Below, piece after piece: positions 35,557 to 45,697 of a DNA stretch of 64,000 nucleotides (positions within the stretch are counted from its first letter, which is position 1; every line of letters begins with the position of its first letter). The position numbers and the translations under genes are program-made. The stretch spans positions 16,878 to 80,877 of the forward strand of contig JBDLIX010000001.1 in assembly GCA_039714655.1 (NCBI GenBank), written 5' to 3'. This DNA comes from Bacteroidota bacterium (GTDB lineage: Bacteria; Bacteroidota; Bacteroidia; Bacteroidales; GCA-2748055). The notes under the pieces were generated by a model. The model made no database searches. It was not told the DNA's origin and saw only the letters and a list, made by a program, of their open reading frames with translations.

Positions 35557-36269
35557 GAAAAGCACTCACACTGATCTTCCTGCTTGCTCTTCTTTATTTA
35601 CCGGAAACGGGAGCCCATGCCCAGGACAAAGGCCTGATGGCCTCTTATGGAGGAGCCACCTTTAGAATGGATGACCTGAAATACTTTCAGGAATACATAC
35701 TGAGTACCTATCCGGTGGAAGGGAAGATTATCAGCTCATTTCCTCCATACCCCTCTGCTTCAGTCAGTTTCTTCAAACAGTGGTTCCCTCAGGTCCGGAT
35801 TGGTGCAGGATATGCATATACCTCCACGGGTGGCAAATCTGACTACACCGATTATTCTGGAAATATTCATACCACCATTATGGCAGCCTCACACCGCGTG
35901 GGAGCGTTTGTCTCATATACAGTTCTGGGGAATGACCACTTTGATCTTTCACTTTTCGGAAGGCTGGATGCAAATCTCACAAGAGTAGAGGTTTCATCTT
36001 CCATATACGCCGGTGGCTATTCCAACGCCCTGCTAAACGAGTACAGATCCATCAGTCCCAATGCATCGACCGGACTGGAACTGACATATAGTTTCAAGGA
36101 CTTTGCCATCGGAATGGATGGTGGCTACCTGGTGGACTTTCCCGGAGATCTAACTGACAACGAAAGGGATAGTAAATTGTATGATCCTGTTGACGGAGAG
36201 AGGATTCTCACCTCTGATTGGACGGGATGGCGTGCCAGCATTAAAGTCATTTTTTGGTTAAATTTCTAA
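35553..36269 (+). CDS. Hypothetical outer-membrane beta-barrel protein
   Basis: 238 aa with a signal peptide, alternating-strand pattern, and C-terminal 'KVIFWLNF'. Its ATG overlaps the stop of the upstream lipoprotein gene (ATGA). Confidence 0.5.
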   Translation: MRKALTLIFLLALLYLPETGAHAQDKGLMASYGGATFRMDDLKYFQEYILSTYPVEGKIISSFPPYPSASVSFFKQWFPQVRIGAGYAYTSTGGKSDYTDYSGNIHTTIMAASHRVGAFVSYTVLGNDHFDLSLFGRLDANLTRVEVSSSIYAGGYSNALLNEYRSISPNASTGLELTYSFKDFAIGMDGGYLVDFPGDLTDNERDSKLYDPVDGERILTSDWTGWRASIKVIFWLNF

Positions 36270-37048
36270 CCGCTTTCGCCTTTAACGGAACGAATGAATT
36301 CCACCACTTTCTCTTCAAGGGGACCTTTCTCTCCCATGGCCCTGATAAATGCGCTTCCAATAATTGCCCCCTCGGCATGCATGCATGCTGTCTTGAAGGT
36401 TTCATGATTGGAGATACCGAATCCAATCAATCCAGGCAGAGGAAGGGCCATACTCCTGATACGCTGGAAATAATCGACCTGATGCTGGCTGATTCCAGAC
36501 TTCACACCCGTAGTTGATGCATCTGACACCAGATAGAGAAATCCTTTCGAGAGTCGGGCTATCTTATGGATGCGTTCTGTGGATGTATGTGGAGTGATCA
36601 GTAATATGTGGTGAATTCCATACTTCTTAAAGAGGTCAAGGTACCTGGATTCATACTCATAAGGAGGCAGGTCCGGGATGATCACCCCATCAATACCAAC
36701 CTCATGACATTTTTCCAGGAAAATCTCCATCCCCATCTGCAGCACAGGATTAAGATAACCCATCAGAACCAGCGGGATATGAACAGTAGAACGGATCCCT
36801 GAAAGCTGTCTGAATAGCAGTTTCAGGTTCATGCCATTCTGAAGTGCAAACTGACTGCTCTGCTGGATTACCGGGCCATCTGCAAGGGGATCTGAGAACG
36901 GTATCCCGATTTCCACCATATCGGTTCCGCAGGTTTGAAGAGCCCTCAAAAGAGCCGGGGTATCATTTAGATCCGGGTATCCAGCTGTTGTATAAACGGA
37001 GAGTATCTCTCCTCTCTTCTCCTTGAATAATTGATCAATCCTATTCAC
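36266..37048 (-). CDS. trpA: Tryptophan synthase alpha chain
   Basis: 260 aa with 'EIGIPFSDPLADGPVIQ'. Confidence 0.93.
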   Translation of the reverse strand: MNRIDQLFKEKRGEILSVYTTAGYPDLNDTPALLRALQTCGTDMVEIGIPFSDPLADGPVIQQSSQFALQNGMNLKLLFRQLSGIRSTVHIPLVLMGYLNPVLQMGMEIFLEKCHEVGIDGVIIPDLPPYEYESRYLDLFKKYGIHHILLITPHTSTERIHKIARLSKGFLYLVSDASTTGVKSGISQHQVDYFQRIRSMALPLPGLIGFGISNHETFKTACMHAEGAIIGSAFIRAMGEKGPLEEKVVEFIRSVKGESG

Positions 37049-37088
37049 CAGCTTTAATTTATTAATGTTCGTTTCATCTCTATTTCTC

Positions 37089-38273
37089 TTATAAACTTAA
37101 TCTATCGATATATGTCTCCATATCTTTATCCCCCCGCCCCGAAAGGTTAACCACTACCGTCTCCTCCTTACCGGGACTGATTTTATCGAGGACTGCAAGG
37201 GCATGGGCCGTTTCCAGAGCCGGAATGATTCCCTCTTTCCTGGTACAGAGCAGGGCTGCCTGAAGGGCCTCCTCATCGGTGGCAGTATACACTTTGGACC
37301 TTCCTGACCTGGCAAGCCAGGAATGGAGTGGACCCACACCGGGATAATCCAATCCTGCAGAAATTGAATAGGGTTCCTCTATCTGTCCGTCTTCATCCTG
37401 CATCAGCAGGGTTTTACTGCCGTGAATGATCCCTACTCTTCCCAAAACCGAAGTGGCTGCTGTTTGACCACTGTTGACCCCCATCCCTGCTGCTTCGGCA
37501 GAGATCAGGCGAACCCTTTCATCCTTCAGGTAATGATAATATGCTCCGGCCGCATTGCTCCCTCCTCCCACACAGGCCACCAGGTAATCGGGGAAATCCC
37601 GTCCCGTTTTTTCTGCCAGCTGGACCTTGATCTCCTCTGAGATGACCGATTGAAACCGGGTTACCATATCAGGATAGGGATGGGGTCCCACAACAGAGCC
37701 AATGATATAATGGGTCTCAACAGGATGATTGATCCAGTCGCGTATTGCTTCATTGGTAGCATCTTTGAGGGTTTTATTCCCACTGTGTACAGGCACCACC
37801 TCTGCTCCAAGCATCTTCATCTTCTTTACATTGGGCGATTGCCGCTCCACATCCAGTGCACCCATATAGACAATACAATTCATACCCGTCAGTGCACAAA
37901 CAGTCGCTGTAGCCACACCATGCTGTCCGGCACCTGTTTCAGCAATGATGCGCTTCTTTCCCAGATCTCTTGCCAGCAGGATCTGACCAATGGTATTGTT
38001 TATTTTATGGGCGCCTGTATGGTTCAGGTCTTCCCGCTTAAGATAGATGTTGGTCCCATAATGTTCCGACAGGCGATCTGCCCGGAACAGTGGTGTGGGT
38101 CTGCCGGCATAATCCTGCAACAATCGACTGAACTGCTCCCTGAACTGATCCGATCCGATAATCTTCAGATAATTCTCCTCCAGCTCCCTGATATTGGGAT
38201 AAAGCATTTCAGGAATATAGGCTCCCCCAAATTCCCCATAAAACCCATTTTGATCAATTTCAAAACCCATCAT
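37089..38273 (-). CDS. trpB: Tryptophan synthase beta chain
   Basis: 394 aa with the PLP-Lys context '[11 protein letters not shown]' and 'GGGSNA'. Confidence 0.95.
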
Positions 38274-38276
38274 TCT

Positions 38277-38912
38277 CTATTTTCTGATTTCCCTCATAAA
38301 CTCCTCCAGAAGATTCACATCTTTCAAGCCGGGAGAGAGCTCAAACCTGCTGTTCAGATCAATCCCGAATAATCCTTCAAAGTGGAGTTTCCGAATGGCA
38401 GCTCCATCTTCCGGACCAATCCCTCCGCTAAGCAGGAAAGGGTTTGGAATAAATGATTCATCGAGAAGTTCCCAGTCAAACTTCCGGCCGGTTCCCCCGT
38501 ATGTTTCTCCCGGTGTATCGATAAGGAGATAATCAACTCCCTTTTTGTATGCTTCAGGAGTAGCACCTTCAGCAATAGAATCCGGACTGAGTGCTTTAAT
38601 CACCGGTATCCCCATATCTTGCATTGTCTCACAATAGTGGGGAGATTCTTCTCCGTGCAATTGAACCATATCAAGCCGGCATAAGGAAAATATCTGTTCC
38701 ACTTTGGAAATCTCCTCATTCACAAACACCCCCACCTTCAGTGTACTCTCTGCGGGTATACCGAAAATGGCCGGATCGGGCTTCTTACCTACATACCGCT
38801 TTGATCCAGGGTAAAAAATATACCCAACAAAATCGGGCTCCAGGGCACATACCCCTTCTATGTTTTCCGGGTGAAGTAATCCACACACCTTTATTTTCAA
38901 CGAGTGCTTCAT
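38277..38912 (-). CDS. trpF: Phosphoribosylanthranilate isomerase
   Basis: 211 aa with 'KVCGL' and 'VQLHGEES'. Position in the operon supports the call. Confidence 0.9.
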   Translation of the reverse strand: MKHSLKIKVCGLLHPENIEGVCALEPDFVGYIFYPGSKRYVGKKPDPAIFGIPAESTLKVGVFVNEEISKVEQIFSLCRLDMVQLHGEESPHYCETMQDMGIPVIKALSPDSIAEGATPEAYKKGVDYLLIDTPGETYGGTGRKFDWELLDESFIPNPFLLSGGIGPEDGAAIRKLHFEGLFGIDLNSRFELSPGLKDVNLLEEFMREIRK

Positions 38913-38931
38913 TTTAGTTGACCAGTATATA

Positions 38932-39711
38932 TCACAACTTCTCCATCAGTTTTTTACACGCCTTGCCAGGATCCTGCTCCTTCATAAAGGACTCTCCCAA
39001 CAGAAATAGCTGGAAACCTGCCTCCCAAAGTCTTTTTATTTCATCACTGCTGTTCAAGCCGCTTTCAGACACCGGAACAACCCCTTCTGGCATTTGCCCG
39101 ATCAGCTCCATGCTTCTGTCAATATCTACCTGGAAGGTTTTCAGGTCACGGTTGTTTACTCCCACATAGCCGATGGAGTCGCTGTATTTTTCCAACTCAT
39201 CTCTGTCATGCACTTCGAACAGTACCTGAAGTCCAAGGGAGCTGGCCTCAAGAGCAAGATCCTCCACCTCATTCTTGTCCAGGAGGGTAGCAATCAGCAA
39301 TACCATGTCTGCACCATATGCGCTTGCCTCATGCAACTGGTAAGGATCGATAATGAAATCCTTTCTCAGAAGGACCAGGTCAGAATAAGATTCTCTTACA
39401 TGCTTCAAGTCTGAGAAGGATCCCCCGAAAAAGCTTCTGTCCGTAAGGATACTCATGGCAGCTACTCCTGCATCACGGTATGCGCCTGCCACTGCAACAG
39501 GATTGGCTTCCATATTAAGGGGACCTTTGGAAGGTGATTTTCGCTTGAATTCTGCAATGATCCCAGGAGTATCGATCAATCCTGCAGAATCAATGCCATT
39601 GGTTTTCCGCCTGTAGAATGGGAACCTGTTCAAGTTGGATAAAGGCCGCTTCTGCTTCCGCTTTAACACCTCCATTTTTTTATGCTCAACAATGGCATCC
39701 AGAATGTTCAT
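38932..39711 (-). CDS. trpC: Indole-3-glycerol-phosphate synthase
   Basis: 259 aa with 'IIAEFKRKSPSKG', 'LRKDFIIDPYQ' and 'VGVNNRDL'. Confidence 0.9.
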   Translation of the reverse strand: MNILDAIVEHKKMEVLKRKQKRPLSNLNRFPFYRRKTNGIDSAGLIDTPGIIAEFKRKSPSKGPLNMEANPVAVAGAYRDAGVAAMSILTDRSFFGGSFSDLKHVRESYSDLVLLRKDFIIDPYQLHEASAYGADMVLLIATLLDKNEVEDLALEASSLGLQVLFEVHDRDELEKYSDSIGYVGVNNRDLKTFQVDIDRSMELIGQMPEGVVPVSESGLNSSDEIKRLWEAGFQLFLLGESFMKEQDPGKACKKLMEKL

Positions 39712-39712
39712 G

Positions 39713-40705
39713 CTATTTGCTTTCTACCAGGTTTTCAAATGTGCTTAAAGCTGAACCCGATTTCAGAGAGTCTCTGGCTCTCTCCAGGCAACTTTCGATG
39801 CCCCTGGATTCATCCATACAGTACATGGCAAATGCTGCATTGGCCACTACCACATCGTTCTGGGCATGGCTTCCTTTTCCCTCCAGGATTTTCAGGAAAA
39901 CTGCAGCAGCCTCTTCCACGGTGGAACCGCCATAGATATCGGAGGGTTTCACCTGTGCAAGTCCAAGGTCGGCAGGTACAAAGGTACGATCGGTCTGCCG
40001 GGTCAGTGCCTTAAAACCACCTGTTAAAGAAATCTCATCGTACCCGTCCAGTGAATGTATGATACAATACTGTTTTTCCGATTCCTGGTATAAATAGTTG
40101 TAGAGTCTGGCCACATCAAGGCTGAAAACCCCAACCAGTTGATTCTTCGGGAAAGCCGGATTCACCATGGGTCCCAACATATTGAAAAAAGTCTTGATCC
40201 GGAGGCTCTGCCTTACAGGCGCCACATTTTTCATGGCCGGGTTGAATAGTGGGGCATGCAGGAAACAGATATTATACCGGTCCATCTCCCTCTTTAACCT
40301 GTCGTTATCGCTGGAAAAGGAATATCCGTAGTATTCCAGCACATTGGATGAGCCACAGGCTGAGGATACACTGTAGTTCCCATGTTTGGCCACCTTTTCT
40401 CCTGCACCAGCTACCACAAAGGAGGTGAGGGTGGAAATATTGAAAGTATTCTTTTCATCACCCCCGGTACCACATACGTCGATGGTATTGAATTCCGATA
40501 GATCTACCGGTGTACAAAGTTCCAGCAGGGCATCACGGAAACCCGACAACTCCTCCACTGTAATGCTTCGCATCAAATAGACCGAAATAAATGCAGCTAT
40601 CTCCGAATCATTGTATATACCCTCTGCCATATTCCTCAGGATCAGCTTGGCATCCTCCTTACCCAGGGTCCGGTGGTCAAACAAATATTGTAGTGTCTCT
40701 TTCAT
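39713..40705 (-). CDS. trpD: Anthranilate phosphoribosyltransferase
   Basis: Carries 'CGTGGDEKNTFNIST'. I chose the ATG at 40705 (MKETLQYLFDH...). A GTG at 40759 overlapping the trpG stop would add an 18-aa repeat-encoded extension. Confidence 0.88.
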   Translation of the reverse strand: MKETLQYLFDHRTLGKEDAKLILRNMAEGIYNDSEIAAFISVYLMRSITVEELSGFRDALLELCTPVDLSEFNTIDVCGTGGDEKNTFNISTLTSFVVAGAGEKVAKHGNYSVSSACGSSNVLEYYGYSFSSDNDRLKREMDRYNICFLHAPLFNPAMKNVAPVRQSLRIKTFFNMLGPMVNPAFPKNQLVGVFSLDVARLYNYLYQESEKQYCIIHSLDGYDEISLTGGFKALTRQTDRTFVPADLGLAQVKPSDIYGGSTVEEAAAVFLKILEGKGSHAQNDVVVANAAFAMYCMDESRGIESCLERARDSLKSGSALSTFENLVESK

Positions 40706-40724
40706 ACGTATCACTTCTAAGTTA

Positions 40725-40753
40725 TCACCTTTTCTGTCACCTTTTCTGTCACC
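40725..40753. repeat. 12-bp tandem repeat (about 2.4 copies) at the trpG-trpD junction
   Basis: 'tcaccttttctg' occurs twice followed by 'tcacc'. If the GTG start is used, the minus strand translates this as GDRKGDRKGD. Confidence 0.85.
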
Positions 40754-40755
40754 CG

Positions 40756-41331
40756 TCACTTATCACCATTTAGCCAGTTCAGGATGATTCTACCACCATA
40801 TTCGGTAAGGACCGACTCAGGATGAAACTGCACCCCCCTAACATCGTACCTTCTGTGTCTGATAGCCATGATATAACCCTCATCATTTTCCACTGTAATC
40901 TCCATTTCATCGGGCAATGTCTCATGCTCAACAATCCATGAGTGATAGCGTCCTGCATCAAAATCCACCGGGATCCCATCCAATAGATAATCCCCTGTCA
41001 CAACCTGCTTCATTTGTCCAACCACTCCGTGGTAAACCGTATCCAGGTTTACAATGGACCCACCATAGGCCTCCGCGATGGCCTGGTGACCAAGGCACAC
41101 ACCCAGGATGCTTTTTGTGGCACCGTATTCCCTGATCAGATCCAGGGCAATACCTGCTTCTTTCGGAATACCGGGACCCGGACTAATAAGGATTTTATCA
41201 TAAGAAGCAATTTCCTCTAAGGAGATTTGGTCGTTCCGCTTCACATCCACAGGTGCCTTCAGCACCCTCTCAATATATTGAACCAGGTTGTAGGTGAATG
41301 AATCGTAATTATCCAGAACCAGAATTTGCAT
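40756..41331 (-). CDS. trpG: Anthranilate synthase component II (glutamine amidotransferase)
   Basis: 191 aa with the catalytic 'LGVCLGHQAI' and 'VQFHPES'. Confidence 0.92.
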   Translation of the reverse strand: MQILVLDNYDSFTYNLVQYIERVLKAPVDVKRNDQISLEEIASYDKILISPGPGIPKEAGIALDLIREYGATKSILGVCLGHQAIAEAYGGSIVNLDTVYHGVVGQMKQVVTGDYLLDGIPVDFDAGRYHSWIVEHETLPDEMEITVENDEGYIMAIRHRRYDVRGVQFHPESVLTEYGGRIILNWLNGDK

Positions 41332-41347
41332 GTTCGTGTTATTTGTC

Positions 41348-42754
41348 TCAGTTAATACTCCGGGCCATCTCTATGGCCGATTTCAAAGCTGCCAGCTTAT
41401 TGTTCACTTCCTGCAGTTCCCCCTCTTCGGTTGATTCAGAAACAATCCCTGCTCCAGCCTGATAATATAGCGTATGATCCCGGGAGAGAAAGGAACGGAT
41501 CATAATGGCATGGTTGATATCACCATTGAACCTGATGAATCCGATGGTACCTCCGTAATATCCCCTTCTTTTGCCTTCATACTTATCGATCAGTTCCATA
41601 GCCCTGTACTTCGGGGCACCCGACAGGGTTCCTGCCGGGAATGATTCGGCCATGATCCGGATGGTATTTGCATCCTCTGGTAATATTCCCGACACCTTTG
41701 AAACCATATGGATCACATGCGAATAGAATTGGATCTCCCGGTAATCTTCTACAGTCACCTTTTTGGCGCTCCGGCTCAGATCATTTCTGGCCAGATCGAC
41801 CAGCATCACATGTTCGGCATTCTCCTTCTCATCCTCAGCCAGTTTCCTGGCCAATTCCTGGTCCTCCCGGTCATTACCAGTGCGCCTGAAGGTTCCTGCA
41901 ATGGGGTTGATGTAAGCTTTTCCACCTTTCACCTCGATCTGCGCTTCCGGGGAAGATCCGAATAACTTGTAGCTTCCATAATCAAAATAGAAAAGGTAGG
42001 GAGAGGGATTGATAGAGCGCAATGAACGATATACATTGAACTCATCACCTGTAAAGGATTGGCGGAATTGTCTTGAAAGGACAATCTGGAAAACATCTCC
42101 CCTGAAACAATGTTCCTTGCCTCTGGTTACCATCTGTCGGTAATCCTCATCTGTCAGGTTGGAAGATTCCTGGCCGGATACCTCAAATCCATACGTTGCT
42201 ATATTGCGGTTGTGAAGCAGTGTGGTTACCCGGTCAATCTCACTTTTGCCACCATTGACAATATGCTCGAACAGCATTAGCTCATTGGTAAGGTGATTGA
42301 TGGCCAGTACAAACCTGAAAAAATTGTACCGAACCTCAGGGATCTCCTCTTTCTCGGGCATGGGCGAATGAAACTTAATCTCTTCAAAATACTGAACCGC
42401 ATCATAGGTAGAATAACCGAATACTCCATCCACCAACATCTCCTCCCCACTTGTATCAATGTCAAAAGAGGAGATGAATTCATTCAGTAATCCCACCACA
42501 TTATTCCCGGGGTTCAACTCCGTTTGTGCCGGCTCATGCCCAGGCAGGCAGATATTCACCTCTCCCTGATTGATACTGAACTCAGCCAGTGGATCCATAC
42601 ATATGAATGAGAAGGAGTTCTCCTTGCTGTGATAGTCAGAGCTTTCAAGCAACAGTGAATTGGGATATACATCCCTCACTTTTAAATATATACTAACTGG
42701 TGTGATGATATCTGCCAATATCTTTCTTCGCTCTATCCTTACCGGTACTTTCAT
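41348..42754 (-). CDS. trpE: Anthranilate synthase component I
   Basis: 468 aa with 'FPAGTLSGAPK' and 'RGYYGGTIGF'. Confidence 0.93.
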   Translation of the reverse strand: MKVPVRIERRKILADIITPVSIYLKVRDVYPNSLLLESSDYHSKENSFSFICMDPLAEFSINQGEVNICLPGHEPAQTELNPGNNVVGLLNEFISSFDIDTSGEEMLVDGVFGYSTYDAVQYFEEIKFHSPMPEKEEIPEVRYNFFRFVLAINHLTNELMLFEHIVNGGKSEIDRVTTLLHNRNIATYGFEVSGQESSNLTDEDYRQMVTRGKEHCFRGDVFQIVLSRQFRQSFTGDEFNVYRSLRSINPSPYLFYFDYGSYKLFGSSPEAQIEVKGGKAYINPIAGTFRRTGNDREDQELARKLAEDEKENAEHVMLVDLARNDLSRSAKKVTVEDYREIQFYSHVIHMVSKVSGILPEDANTIRIMAESFPAGTLSGAPKYRAMELIDKYEGKRRGYYGGTIGFIRFNGDINHAIMIRSFLSRDHTLYYQAGAGIVSESTEEGELQEVNNKLAALKSAIEMARSIN

Positions 42755-42802
42755 CTTCAGTATAATTTTTATTTTTCATATCATTGTTCATTGCTCAATT
42801 AA

Positions 42803-42856
42803 GTGCAATAAAAAAAGGCCCCCGCCGAAGTGGAAGCCTTTATTATTTCATTGCAC
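42803..42856 (-). terminator. trp attenuator: intrinsic terminator between leader peptide and trpE
   Basis: The RNA reads GGCUUCCAC-UUCG-GCGGGGGCC followed by U7 (plus-strand 42810-42838). An outer helix GUGCAAU/AUUGCAC (42850-56 / 42803-09) and an A-tract/U-tract pair flank it. Confidence 0.7.
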
Positions 42857-42869
42857 AATGGGGCTGAAC

Positions 42870-42929
42870 CTATTCTCCGGTCTTTTGGAAATTAAGTTGC
42901 CACCACCAGTTTGTGCGAATCATTTTCAT
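42870..42929 (-). CDS. trp operon leader peptide (MKMIRTNWWWQLNFQKTGE)
   Basis: Hand translation of the minus strand gives 19 codons plus TAG, with three consecutive UGG codons. It sits about 30 nt upstream of the terminator and about 115 nt upstream of the trpE start. Confidence 0.7.
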   Translation of the reverse strand: MKMIRTNWWWQLNFQKTGE

Positions 42930-43016
42930 AGTGTAATCTTTATAGATGTCAAATTAAAGGAAAGATTTCAATTAATCCAAATTTCATTACTTTCGCCTCT
43001 CAGAAAACTCATTCCA

Positions 43017-43799
43017 ATGGCCAAAAAGTATTTCAGGAATATCTCTCTCTTCTTCATCATATGGCTGGCCGTGATGGTGATCTACTCCGTGACCCACAGA
43101 GTAACAGACCTGGATTACCTGTGGAAGTTTTTTCTGCTTCCGGCTCTGTTTCTGGGATTTATTGCTGCGCTTGCTACCACCCTTGAATATGTTTTCAATG
43201 TAAAGAAGGGGATCAACTGGATCTTCCTGGTGGTGGCAGTAGCCATAGACCAGGGGATCAAAGGGTATCTTTTTTCCCTGGATTGGCACTCCATATCCAT
43301 CCCATTGATCAAACCTGTATTTTTTATCGAGCCCACCCAAAATACCCTGGGTTCATATCTATGGGTACTCCTGGGACTAAAGCAGGGCTCCCATCTGCTG
43401 AACATCATCCTGTTCAGCCTGATCGGTATCGTATTCATCGAGGTATGGCGGTTTTATGTCAAAAGAAAGAGAAACAGTTTCTGGATCAATGGCTTTATCC
43501 ACCTCTTCCTGGCCGGTCTTGCAGCCAACCTGATAGACAATGCATTCTGGGGTGGCTCTCTGGATTATATCACCATCAAACCTTTCTATACCTTTGACCT
43601 GAAGGATCTCTATATTACGTTGTGTGAGCTGTTCCTGGTTACCGAACTGATGGACAACAGGCTACTAAAAAAGTTCATGAGAATGCCCCGAGAGGAGAGT
43701 AATCAGCTGAATAAAGATTTTATCACTTTTGTGAAACGCGATTTGGGTATTAGAAAGAAGAGGGATGATCATCATGAGTCCGGAAATGCTAATGAATAA
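43017..43799 (+). CDS. Signal peptidase II (LspA)-like membrane protein with N- and C-terminal extensions
   Basis: I trimmed the start to the ATG at 43017. LspA-like blocks present are 'VAIDQGIKGYL', 'QNTLGSY' and 'AANLIDNAFWGGSLDYI...FDLKDLYI', which retain both Asp positions. The tail is charged. Confidence 0.55.
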   Translation: MAKKYFRNISLFFIIWLAVMVIYSVTHRVTDLDYLWKFFLLPALFLGFIAALATTLEYVFNVKKGINWIFLVVAVAIDQGIKGYLFSLDWHSISIPLIKPVFFIEPTQNTLGSYLWVLLGLKQGSHLLNIILFSLIGIVFIEVWRFYVKRKRNSFWINGFIHLFLAGLAANLIDNAFWGGSLDYITIKPFYTFDLKDLYITLCELFLVTELMDNRLLKKFMRMPREESNQLNKDFITFVKRDLGIRKKRDDHHESGNANE

Positions 43800-44313
43800 C
43801 TTCTGCATCTCTTAGCATCAACATCAGTTGATAACACCTTTCAATATCCTTCACCATTGAAGATGCAGAAAATGTAGCACCCGAGATGGTATCTATATCT
43901 TTTCCCAGTTCAAGTTCCTCTCCGCTGTATCCTTTAAATTGTTTCAGCCAGCTCTTGCTGCAAATTCCCGCCCCATGTGTTGAACGGTAAACAAGAACCA
44001 TGATATTGAGAACCGTTAGCTCCTCAGAAAAGATCACACTGTAGTCAAACAGATCAAACCTCCCTTTGGCTTGTGTAGATAATAGATAACCCAGGACCAA
44101 TTCATTCCTGATCAATTCAAATACGGCATCTCCTTGCTTCAGATAGGGCTGAAGGATTGAATTATCCACGGAAATCTCAGCCTTCCGATACGCTGTTTCA
44201 CTGCCAAAAATCCGGGAAATCTCTTTTCTCTCTTTCTTTCCAGGTATTCCGGGCTCTTCTGCACTGATCCTTGTGATGCAAAACAGGCAAAATATGATTG
44301 CTATGACCCTCAT
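43789..44313 (-). CDS. Exported FMN-binding-domain protein
   Basis: I chose the ATG at 44313 (MRVIAIIFCLFCITRISA, signal peptide); the longer ORF starts at a TTG. The FMN_bind-type 'DTISGATFSASSMV' (flavinylation-type S-G-A-T) is preceded by 'WLKQFKG'. Confidence 0.7.
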   Translation of the reverse strand: MRVIAIIFCLFCITRISAEEPGIPGKKERKEISRIFGSETAYRKAEISVDNSILQPYLKQGDAVFELIRNELVLGYLLSTQAKGRFDLFDYSVIFSEELTVLNIMVLVYRSTHGAGICSKSWLKQFKGYSGEELELGKDIDTISGATFSASSMVKDIERCYQLMLMLRDAEVIH

Positions 44314-44330
44314 TTTCTCCTCTCGTTTGA

Positions 44331-45515
44331 CTAAAACCAAATAGCCACACCGGCATTCAGCTGCTGCCCGGATCCACTTGTACCGCGATTATTAAATATC
44401 TGATAGTCCAGTTTCAACATGGCTCCCGATGCTAATTTCCAACCCAAACCAAAGGTCAGGTCACTTCGGTTATTGGATTCATTCAGGATCGTCCCTTCCG
44501 CAACAGAGCCATGTGTGTGGTATTGCTCCACCCTGAGAAACGGGATCAGATCAGTTTCAAACCTGTCCGAAGCATGAAGCAAATTGTAAGCAACTTCACC
44601 ATACCACCCATAGATAGTGCTACCCAGGTCACTTCCGGTGAATTCATTATAATTCGAAGAATTTGAAACAATGCCATAATTCAACTGAGCTTTCAGTTGG
44701 AGACCTCCCTTGGAATAACGTGCATCTGCACCTATCATACTGAGTCCTACCACAGAAGAATCAGCCCTGATCATCGCATCATTGTCCGATTTGTCGAGAC
44801 CATCATAAAGAGTGGACTGTGTGTTTCCTCTATAGCCTGAAAATCCCAGCTGTAATCCTGAGATGCCAAAGTAATTGACTTTAAAGGTAAGATTAGGGGC
44901 ACTCATCAATGATTCTGCTCCCTTCTGACGACCCTTTCTGAATCCGTTGGAGCCGCTAAGATTGGCAGAACCATCATATCCATTAAATCCATTCACTATA
45001 TAGAGCTGGTATGAGAGTGAGCTGGATGGAAAGACACCTGCAAATCCTGCTCCGATTTCACGCCAGGTGGATGGAACGATGTATTTGTCCAGGTTAGGTC
45101 GCTCAACTCCGTTAAAAGTTGAGGGTTCATGATATTCATTGATAATGCCCATGGGGATCAGCATCAATCCACCTCTGAATTTCAACCAGGGAGTGATCTC
45201 ATATTGCAAAAATGCCTGTTCCACATAAATCTCCTTAACGTGTTCAAACTCCACCTCAGAAACGAATTGTGTTTTTTCATTGAATTTGTATCCGAACATC
45301 AGGACCATCCGGTGTACATCCAACCCTGCATTCTGATATGTTCCGTTTTCAACAGGCTGGTTAAAGTCAATCTGCCCATACCCTCCGATAGTAAGACGCT
45401 CAACTTCATCCATCATTCGTGTCGCACTGTTTTTCTGCTCCTGCCCACTGAGCCATATTGTACTAACCAGAAGCCCAAACGAAATGGCCATGGTTTTACA
45501 TCTCAATTCGTTCAT
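44331..45515 (-). CDS. Porin-like outer-membrane beta-barrel protein
   Basis: About 394-402 aa; the start is ambiguous (TTG 45539, ATG 45515 or ATG 45491). It has a signal peptide, a beta-strand pattern, and C-terminal 'NAGVAIWF'. Confidence 0.6.
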   Translation of the reverse strand: MNELRCKTMAISFGLLVSTIWLSGQEQKNSATRMMDEVERLTIGGYGQIDFNQPVENGTYQNAGLDVHRMVLMFGYKFNEKTQFVSEVEFEHVKEIYVEQAFLQYEITPWLKFRGGLMLIPMGIINEYHEPSTFNGVERPNLDKYIVPSTWREIGAGFAGVFPSSSLSYQLYIVNGFNGYDGSANLSGSNGFRKGRQKGAESLMSAPNLTFKVNYFGISGLQLGFSGYRGNTQSTLYDGLDKSDNDAMIRADSSVVGLSMIGADARYSKGGLQLKAQLNYGIVSNSSNYNEFTGSDLGSTIYGWYGEVAYNLLHASDRFETDLIPFLRVEQYHTHGSVAEGTILNESNNRSDLTFGLGWKLASGAMLKLDYQIFNNRGTSGSGQQLNAGVAIWF

Positions 45516-45697
45516 ATTCAGTAATGTTTCTTGTACCAAACAAAACTATGCCAAATCCAGGGTCATTTGACCCATGGCAAATTTTGGCAATACCATTCTA
45601 AATAGGAAAATTGGTTTTCTGTCTGACTGACAGGAAAATAATAGATAATAGAGATGGGTTATTTAGAATAAAATACCTAGAAGTAGGGATATCCCCA

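Follow-up and report, generated by a model that had tools for sequence, protein, structure and literature searches.

A tryptophan-codon leader upstream of trpE in an uncultured Bacteroidota genome: a probable ribosome-mediated attenuator related to the Bacteroid-trp family

Introduction

What controls tryptophan synthesis in an uncultured bacterium of the phylum Bacteroidota? The 64-kb stretch of genomic DNA analysed here (the window) carries a run of trp genes on its minus strand, and ahead of trpE lies a very short open reading frame with three successive tryptophan codons, followed by an intrinsic terminator. An earlier note on this DNA had read the arrangement as attenuation of the enterobacterial trpL type. 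Comparative evidence supports that reading well: the mini-ORF is conserved, the terminator and a large hairpin (P1) covary, and the leader can be linked to Rfam family RF01692. The element is very probably a ribosome-mediated transcription attenuator of trpEGDCFBA and a divergent member of the Bacteroid-trp family. It most likely turns the tryptophan-synthesis operon on when tryptophan is low.

Attenuators were reportedly also predicted in the Bacteroidetes/Chlorobi group by Vitreschak et al. (2004). The Bacteroid-trp motif, which carries at least two UGG codons, was described as 'a loosely conserved hairpin' and 'presumably a peptide leader', and is said to control trpB and trpE (Weinberg et al. 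2010, PMC2864571). The published entry on the motif comes without a consensus diagram and without a terminator or antiterminator model (PMC2864571), and a later paper does no more than record the motif in Flavobacterium psychrophilum. An experimental test of a Bacteroidota trp leader was not found in the literature. Together with the supplement to Weinberg et al., this agrees with the statement in the earlier note that such leaders had been predicted computationally and not dissected experimentally.

The leader and its genomic setting

The 19-codon ORF with its three UGG codons is present on the minus strand just as it had first been described (Table 1), tryptophan accounting for three of the 19 codons. 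The same is true of the UUCG hairpin, the U7 tract and their spacing to trpE. The hairpin begins after a gap of 31 nt from the leader stop codon and consists of 7 bp, an A.C mismatch and, last, the C-G pair on which the UUCG loop closes, with a folding energy of -10.8 kcal/mol; the trpE ATG (42754) lies 55 nt beyond the U-tract. An independent terminator scan also finds the hairpin and its T-run, as one of four terminator-like sites in 800 nt, where shuffles lead one to expect 0.8. As in classical attenuators, the leader ORF is enriched in tryptophan codons and an intrinsic terminator stands before the first structural gene. By eye, no Shine-Dalgarno-like sequence precedes the leader ATG, as expected in Bacteroidota, a phylum largely without Shine-Dalgarno-led initiation.

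Table 1. Features of the leader region and related loci (window coordinates unless a locus is named)
Feature	Position	Strand	Basis
Promoter-like block TTTAATTTGAC	42948..42958	minus	near-unchanged in close relatives
Leader ORF, 19 codons + UAG, encoding MKMIRTNWWWQLNFQKTGE	42929-42870	minus	read from sequence
Leader ORF ends (ATG; TAG)	42929-42927; 42872-42870	minus	read from sequence
Trp codons UGG UGG UGG (proposed sensing site)	42908-42900	minus	read from sequence; invariant in alignment A2
P1 hairpin, -25.3 kcal/mol	42916-42853	minus	MFE folds, RNAalifold
Antiterminator 5' strands (candidate): CCGGAG; GG; AGCC	42880-42875; 42870-42869; 42865-42862	minus	truncated-transcript folds
Inner hairpin (candidate): AUUGU with AUAAU	42859-42855 with 42846-42842 (42842..42859)	minus	folds
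Outer helix GUGCAAU / AUUGCAC	42856-42850 / 42809-42803	minus	sequence
Terminator hairpin GGCUUCCAC-UUCG-GCGGGGGCC	42838-42817	minus	sequence, terminator scan
U7 tract of intrinsic terminator	42816-42810	minus	sequence, terminator scan
trpE	41348-42754	minus	NCBIfam
trpG	40756-41331	minus	NCBIfam
trpD	39713-40759	minus	NCBIfam
trpC	38932-39711	minus	NCBIfam
trpF	38277-38912	minus	NCBIfam
trpB	37089-38273	minus	NCBIfam
trpA	36266-37048	minus	NCBIfam
Candidate regulated operon trpEGDCFBA	36266..42754	minus	NCBIfam matches
Peptidase_A8 / lspA-like gene (lipoprotein signal peptidase)	43017-43799	plus	Pfam Peptidase_A8
Tandem leader loci	L013:2165-2431; L043:2181-2437; L071:2078-2419; L014:2097-2389
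Bacteroidales_small_SRP RNA (RF04183)	L037:1531-1623; L079:1142-1232	minus	

Which gene does the terminator serve? The TrpE encoded in the window is 100% identical to an NCBI protein from a MAG labelled 'Bacteroidota bacterium', and its nearest relatives come from Bacteroidales MAGs. On the other side of the leader lies an lspA-like gene on the plus strand, and the relatives likewise have this gene next to trpE in divergent orientation. The earlier note had called a 379-aa plus-strand ORF at this place (42660-43799) spurious; only its TTG-started 5' extension across the leader (42660-43016) is an artefact, and from the ATG at 43017 onwards it is a real lspA-like gene. Because lspA is divergent, the trp promoter must lie within the 262-nt intergenic region between lspA and trpE, and a terminator there cannot serve an upstream gene. 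With no co-directional gene upstream, a terminator between this promoter and trpE can only be regulatory.

The promoter itself is predicted. A promoter-like block is found about 20 nt before the leader ATG, which would leave a short 5' UTR rich in A; TTAATTTG is a 7/8 match to TAnnTTTG, which we take to be the consensus of the Bacteroidota -7 box. A scan for sigma-70 promoters returned nothing relevant near the leader, as expected for Bacteroidota promoters. Transcription probably starts some 10-15 nt upstream of the leader ATG.

Two minus-strand genes (43789-45539) converge on the 3' end of lspA in the window. One codes for a 183-aa protein that is FMN_bind / RnfG-like; for the product of the other, an unassigned ORF of 402 aa, neither Pfam nor NCBIfam gives a match. 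In two Cytophagales genomes, a Bacteroidales_small_SRP RNA (RF04183) that is unrelated to the leader lies about 1 kb upstream of trpE.

Conservation of the leader ORF

Could a short ORF with tryptophan codons stand beside a terminator by chance? The motif TGGTGGTGG by itself is not rare, with two copies in 64 kb against 0.57 expected, and an ORF that arose by chance beside a constitutive terminator or insulator would regulate nothing. Orthologous regions argue strongly against this. The sample comprised 160 trpE loci fetched from Bacteroidota genomes and metagenomes, to which 11 further close relatives were added. The census of mini-ORFs, defined as ORFs of at most 45 codons containing WW, covered 155 upstream regions of at least 300 nt each, drawn from the window and the 160 loci. 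A WW mini-ORF precedes trpE in 142 of these 155 Bacteroidota regions, and WWW occurs in 108; neither the reverse complements nor the shuffled sequences contained a single one (0/155 for each). A hairpin with a T-run comes after the mini-ORF in 126 loci, and in the eight loci listed the hairpin starts about 30-42 nt beyond the mini-ORF stop. The Trp-rich mini-ORF, for which the earlier note had proposed a check among orthologues, is thus conserved phylum-wide, and its arrangement with terminator and trpE is far beyond chance. Phylum-wide conservation, covariation (see below) and the fixed position before trpE effectively refute a fortuitous ORF, which is extremely improbable. Furthermore, an essential biosynthetic operon would be shut off by a constitutive terminator placed after its sole promoter.

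What exactly is conserved in the leader ORF? The 25 close relatives keep its start, frame and length. Codons 2-4 and 11-17 vary among them, and the peptide downstream of WWW is poorly conserved. By contrast, CCGGAG and the nnUAGG that follows are unchanged throughout the close family, although the encoded residues differ (the codons read ACC, GCC, UCC or CCC, then GGA, then Gnn), and the stop codon is always UAG. In one relative (L167:495-628), a 1-nt deletion shifts the end of the ORF, so that the peptide ends ..RNPEHR with UAA 4 nt later, yet the RNA segment CCGGAGCAUAGG is kept. Thus, with CCGGAG and UAGG constant while residues vary and one ORF is frameshifted, the 3' half of the ORF is constrained as RNA. 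In another close relative (L162:451-587) the leader ORF begins with GUG and not AUG; its layout is otherwise identical.

Conserved structure of the leader RNA

The leader RNA of the window folds far better than its shuffles (z -4.2). Its largest element, P1, is a hairpin with the tryptophan codons in its 5' arm, which the earlier note had overlooked. At the base, GCACAA (42916-42911) pairs with UUGUGC (42858-42853); in the interior, the tryptophan codons pair with GCCCC, and at the apex UUCC pairs with GGAG. In alignment A2, which consists of 25 unique close relatives, the helices of P1 are 79-97% paired. P1 and the terminator together are 90.6% paired. Compensatory changes are seen in the terminator, which is 96% paired in the close family, with three compensatory pairs, and every sequence in A2 has a T-run of at least 7.

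A covariance model built from A2 locates the leader, at the right position and on the right strand, in most loci across the phylum. Its matches yielded a broad alignment of 65 leaders, in which P1 and the terminator are 89% paired. Compensatory double changes are seen in 19 of 20 P1 pairs, and in 28 of 29 pairs when the terminator is included; the terminator alone is 97% paired, with all nine of its nine pairs compensated. The covariation score of P1 plus terminator is 0.55, compared with 0.21 for shuffles and 0.05-0.12 for slid partners, and these covariation figures are somewhat inflated because the 65-leader alignment was fitted to P1 and the terminator. Covariation of the stems, which the earlier note had suggested looking for in aligned trpE upstream regions, is therefore found for both hairpins. 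The outer helix that had been described as bracketing the terminator does exist in the window, but it is not conserved in 24 close relatives; apart from a partial version in one of them (L002), it is specific to the window. It is probably incidental, and was rejected as a functional part.

Relationship to the Bacteroid-trp family

Is this leader already known to Rfam? No match reaches a gathering threshold anywhere in the 64-kb window. The model of RF01692 (Bacteroid-trp) aligns to 42952-42831 with 31.7 bits, short of its gathering threshold of 49 (E 0.31); this alignment spans the full model (1-131), and the AUG, the run of UGG codons and the terminator start all fall in register. Matches to ctRNA_p42d, RsaE and Atu_C8 are sub-threshold too and were set aside, as they reflect a generic terminator hairpin and not homology. 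Of 20 orthologous loci scored against RF01692, no more than three reach its threshold, all of them Flavobacteriales leaders. All three RF01692-positive loci are found by R1, a model built from the clade (L060, E 2.7e-9; L049, 5.6e-7; L059, 2e-4). This recovery of leaders recognised by Rfam is the reason for filing the window leader as a divergent member of the Bacteroid-trp family.

The features agree with this placement. The leader lies upstream of trpE in a member of the Bacteroidota, it has at least two conserved UGG codons, and these codons sit in the 5' arm of a hairpin. It shares with Bacteroid-trp a short UGG-bearing ORF within the 5' arm of a hairpin that is long and only loosely conserved, and, after this hairpin, the start of a terminator (AAAGGCUU...). 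P1 matches the RF01692 structure and is the only part that Rfam models. The clade has invariants of its own that set it apart from RF01692, namely CCGGAG, a UAG stop embedded in structure, a cUUCGg terminator loop and an ACAAU spacer.

The size and conservation of P1 raise another possibility. In principle it could bind a factor, so that termination would respond to a protein or ligand (TRAP-like, T-box-like or riboswitch) while the mini-ORF is idle. An RNA of this kind would not need the in-frame ATG, UGG run and stop that are present in 142 of 155 regions and 0 of 155 controls, and the only relevant Rfam match, sub-threshold as it is, is to a peptide-leader family. For a TRAP-like array, inspection revealed no set of 9-11 (G/U)AG repeats, GAG and UAG occurring once each. 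Sensing by a factor is thus very improbable at this locus.

Candidate antiterminators

Which structure would compete with the terminator? The earlier note had put forward the pairing of CCGGAG with CUUCGG at the terminator apex, and had anticipated that it would be weak. This pairing is possible in 25 of 25 relatives; both strands are invariant, so it shows no covariation, and it is the helix of the antiterminator that tells least. Folds of truncated transcripts suggest a candidate core that is better supported: AGCC (42865-42862) with GGCU (42838-42835), GG (42870-42869) with CC (42833-42832), and an inner hairpin. The GG overlaps the leader stop codon, and the inner hairpin reuses the 3' strand of the P1 base. 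In relatives the inner hairpin takes the form AUUGU with ACAAU and is 90% paired in A2; its pairing would account for the conservation of the spacer AAUACAAUAUU, which is otherwise unexplained. In the window folds, the lower helices and the inner hairpin form at all three tryptophan stall positions, occupying six of the nine bases of the terminator arm, and in relatives CGGAGC with GCUUCG extends the antiterminator. An extension of the CCGGAG helix by one further pair (A2 columns 59 and 108) was discarded: it can pair in 7 of 25 sequences, which is about chance.

The antiterminator is 92% pairable in the 25 relatives, compared with 36-63% for slid controls; on the broad alignment, which was not fitted to these helices, the figures are 71% and 38-47%. 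It is almost without covariation because its segments are near-invariant in the close family, the sole double change being from G-C to A-U in one relative (L088). A comparison of covariation across three columns, one each from regions 1, 2 and 3, says little, as the columns are mostly A-U-A and the spacer is poorly aligned in distant sequences.

How strong is the candidate? In the window, the gain from adding the terminator arm is no more than about -6 kcal/mol. Dinucleotide shuffles do as well (z -0.7), which bears out the weakness that had been anticipated. The same measure gives -10.1 kcal/mol and z -4.5 for E. coli trpL. Leaders across the phylum average z -1.15 (p 4e-13), and only 24% of them fall below -2. 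The duplex energy of region 2 with the terminator arm differs significantly but little (-1.3 kcal/mol) from that of partners permuted across loci, a comparison that is a weak control since the chimeras share family-wide motifs.

At equilibrium, folds made with ribosome masks show the terminator whichever state is modelled. E. coli trpL (sequence verified) gives an equilibrium probability of the terminator of 0.95 in all states. The equilibrium test is thus uninformative, as a proven attenuator behaves identically, and a reading of these folds as 'no antiterminator' was dropped. In a kinetic test, nascent RNA lacking the terminator 3' arm was folded with a ribosome in place, for 123 leaders. 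With the ribosome at the last tryptophan codon, the terminator 5' arm is already paired at 0.645, and this falls to 0.175 when the ribosome is at the stop codon (p 7e-22). Shuffled upstream RNA gives 0.50 (p 1e-14) and chimeras give 0.59 (p 1e-4). In the same pipeline, E. coli trpL yields 0.62 when stalled and 0.004 at the stop. The candidate antiterminator therefore shows the expected dependence on ribosome position, yet in the window it has the z of -0.7 and the near absence of covariation described above.

Might tryptophan be sensed by the leader and terminator while read-through is independent of these helices? The window antiterminator cannot be distinguished statistically from shuffles, and the window terminator is itself weak, with its A.C mismatch, and could fail whenever P1 cannot form. 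Other routes could be a stalled ribosome that alters polymerase pausing at P1, or pairing of CCGGAG with CUUCGG alone; these two segments and the apical UUCCG are invariant and mutually complementary in the close Bacteroidales clade. However, the last route involves a 6-bp pairing to the apical loop that leaves both terminator arms free, and in the window folds CCGGAG stays in the P1 apex unless the ribosome is at the third tryptophan codon, that is, at two of the three stall positions. It also leaves the conservation of the ACAAU spacer and the AGCC segment unaccounted for. The phylum-wide kinetic signal, for its part, favours pre-pairing of the 5' arm. Read-through without the proposed helices is, on this evidence, unlikely.

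A model for attenuation

How might an attenuator built on the AGCC and GG helices and the inner hairpin work? In the proposed model, in which the leader ORF is presumably translated in step with transcription, three states would be distinguished. When the ribosome is absent or has departed, P1 would pair the segment of the tryptophan codons with the segment after the stop, the terminator (42838-42810) would form, and transcription would halt before trpE. When charged tRNA-Trp is ample, the ribosome would pass the three UGG codons and arrive at the UAG. Its footprint there (about 42890-42860) would hide CCGGAG, GG and AGCC; the masking of CCGGAG by a ribosome at the stop codon had been part of the original proposal, and the segment does fall inside this footprint. 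The terminator would then have no competitor, and transcription would stop.

When charged tRNA-Trp is scarce, the ribosome would stall on a UGG codon and so keep hold of the 5' arm of P1. The 3' arm of this hairpin, now free, could fold with the spacer and the emerging 5' arm of the terminator, through the helices AUUGU with AUAAU, AGCC with GGCU, and GG with CC. If the apex is covered as well, CGGAG with CUUCG would extend the antiterminator. Six of the nine bases of the terminator arm would be taken before the 3' arm is made, and RNA polymerase would read on into trpE.

What, then, is the role of the invariant UUCCG, CCGGAG and CUUCGG? It is tempting to speculate about a two-tier switch, although the idea is a long shot. 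A stall at any tryptophan codon would set free the lower antiterminator (AGCC with GGCU plus the spacer hairpin), but the upper one (CGGAG with CUUCG) would need a stall at the third. If this were true, the three UGG codons would set a graded response and not an on/off one. Alternatively, and within the same low expectation, the invariant segments may reflect a terminated leader RNA that acts in trans.

Comparison with other trp leaders

A function in trans is known from Sinorhizobium, where a trpL leader with tryptophan codons and a terminator upstream of trpE(G) gives rise to the trans-acting rnTrpL and peTrpL, as outlined in PMC7298713 and PMC7968998. Could the terminated transcript of about 130 nt, or the peptide, likewise act chiefly in trans in the window, with control of trpE in cis being secondary? 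The transcript would come with a promoter-like block of its own, fold into a stable structure and end in a terminator, and CCGGAG and other segments that can be single-stranded are invariant beyond the needs of pairing. As in Sinorhizobium, a short terminated RNA upstream of trpE is predicted. Unlike in Sinorhizobium, the window peptide beyond WWW is unconserved, and one relative is frameshifted. The element always lies immediately upstream of trpE (or of trpB too, according to the motif description in PMC2864571), and a role in trans would add to attenuation and not replace it. A leader that acts chiefly in trans is thus distinctly improbable, and attenuation in cis is the preferred reading.

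The comparison with E. coli trpL (RF00513, the Yanofsky model) is one of shared logic. Both leaders have tandem tryptophan codons, a 1:2 hairpin (of which P1 is the equivalent) and a downstream 3:4 terminator, and in both the stop codon is sited such that a terminating ribosome masks region 2. The Bacteroidota leaders and E. coli trpL also behave alike in the folding tests: the terminator arm is pre-paired at 0.62-0.65 in the stalled state and little at the stop codon, while at equilibrium the terminator prevails in both. Sequence is another matter, as RF00513 (Trp_leader) gives no match to the window and there is no similarity of sequence or model to E. coli trpL. The window leader has three tryptophan codons compared to two in E. 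coli, and its antiterminator is discontinuous and much weaker.

Tandem leaders

In several lineages (among them Prolixibacteraceae and a MAG of the Flammeovirgaceae), two complete units of leader plus terminator are found in series before trpE. The peptide of the first unit often belongs to a conserved type of its own (..NTIWLPWWGLLT or ..KSIWLWWGNTFLC), whereas the second unit encodes the usual NxWWW. As with riboswitches in tandem, such a doubling of the attenuator could make the response sharper.

Significance

What does the leader mean for the biology of the phylum? The leader is genuine, yet it is an ordinary example of a type that had already been predicted in Bacteroidota in 2010. Its description gives the trp operon of this uncultured bacterium a regulatory annotation that had been lacking, and disposes of an ORF call that misled. 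Leaders with tryptophan codons are present in about 90% of the Bacteroidota sampled, while among 20 loci Rfam passes only those of Flavobacteriales; the family is therefore under-annotated. Two products of the analysis may be of use, namely a testable antiterminator model with three helices and a leader family that is phylum-wide yet under-detected by Rfam.

Attenuation by a leader peptide needs ribosomes close behind RNA polymerase. A working attenuator in Bacteroidota would thus be direct evidence for coupling of transcription and translation in the phylum, and the Bacteroidales clade described here offers a compact, well-defined test case.
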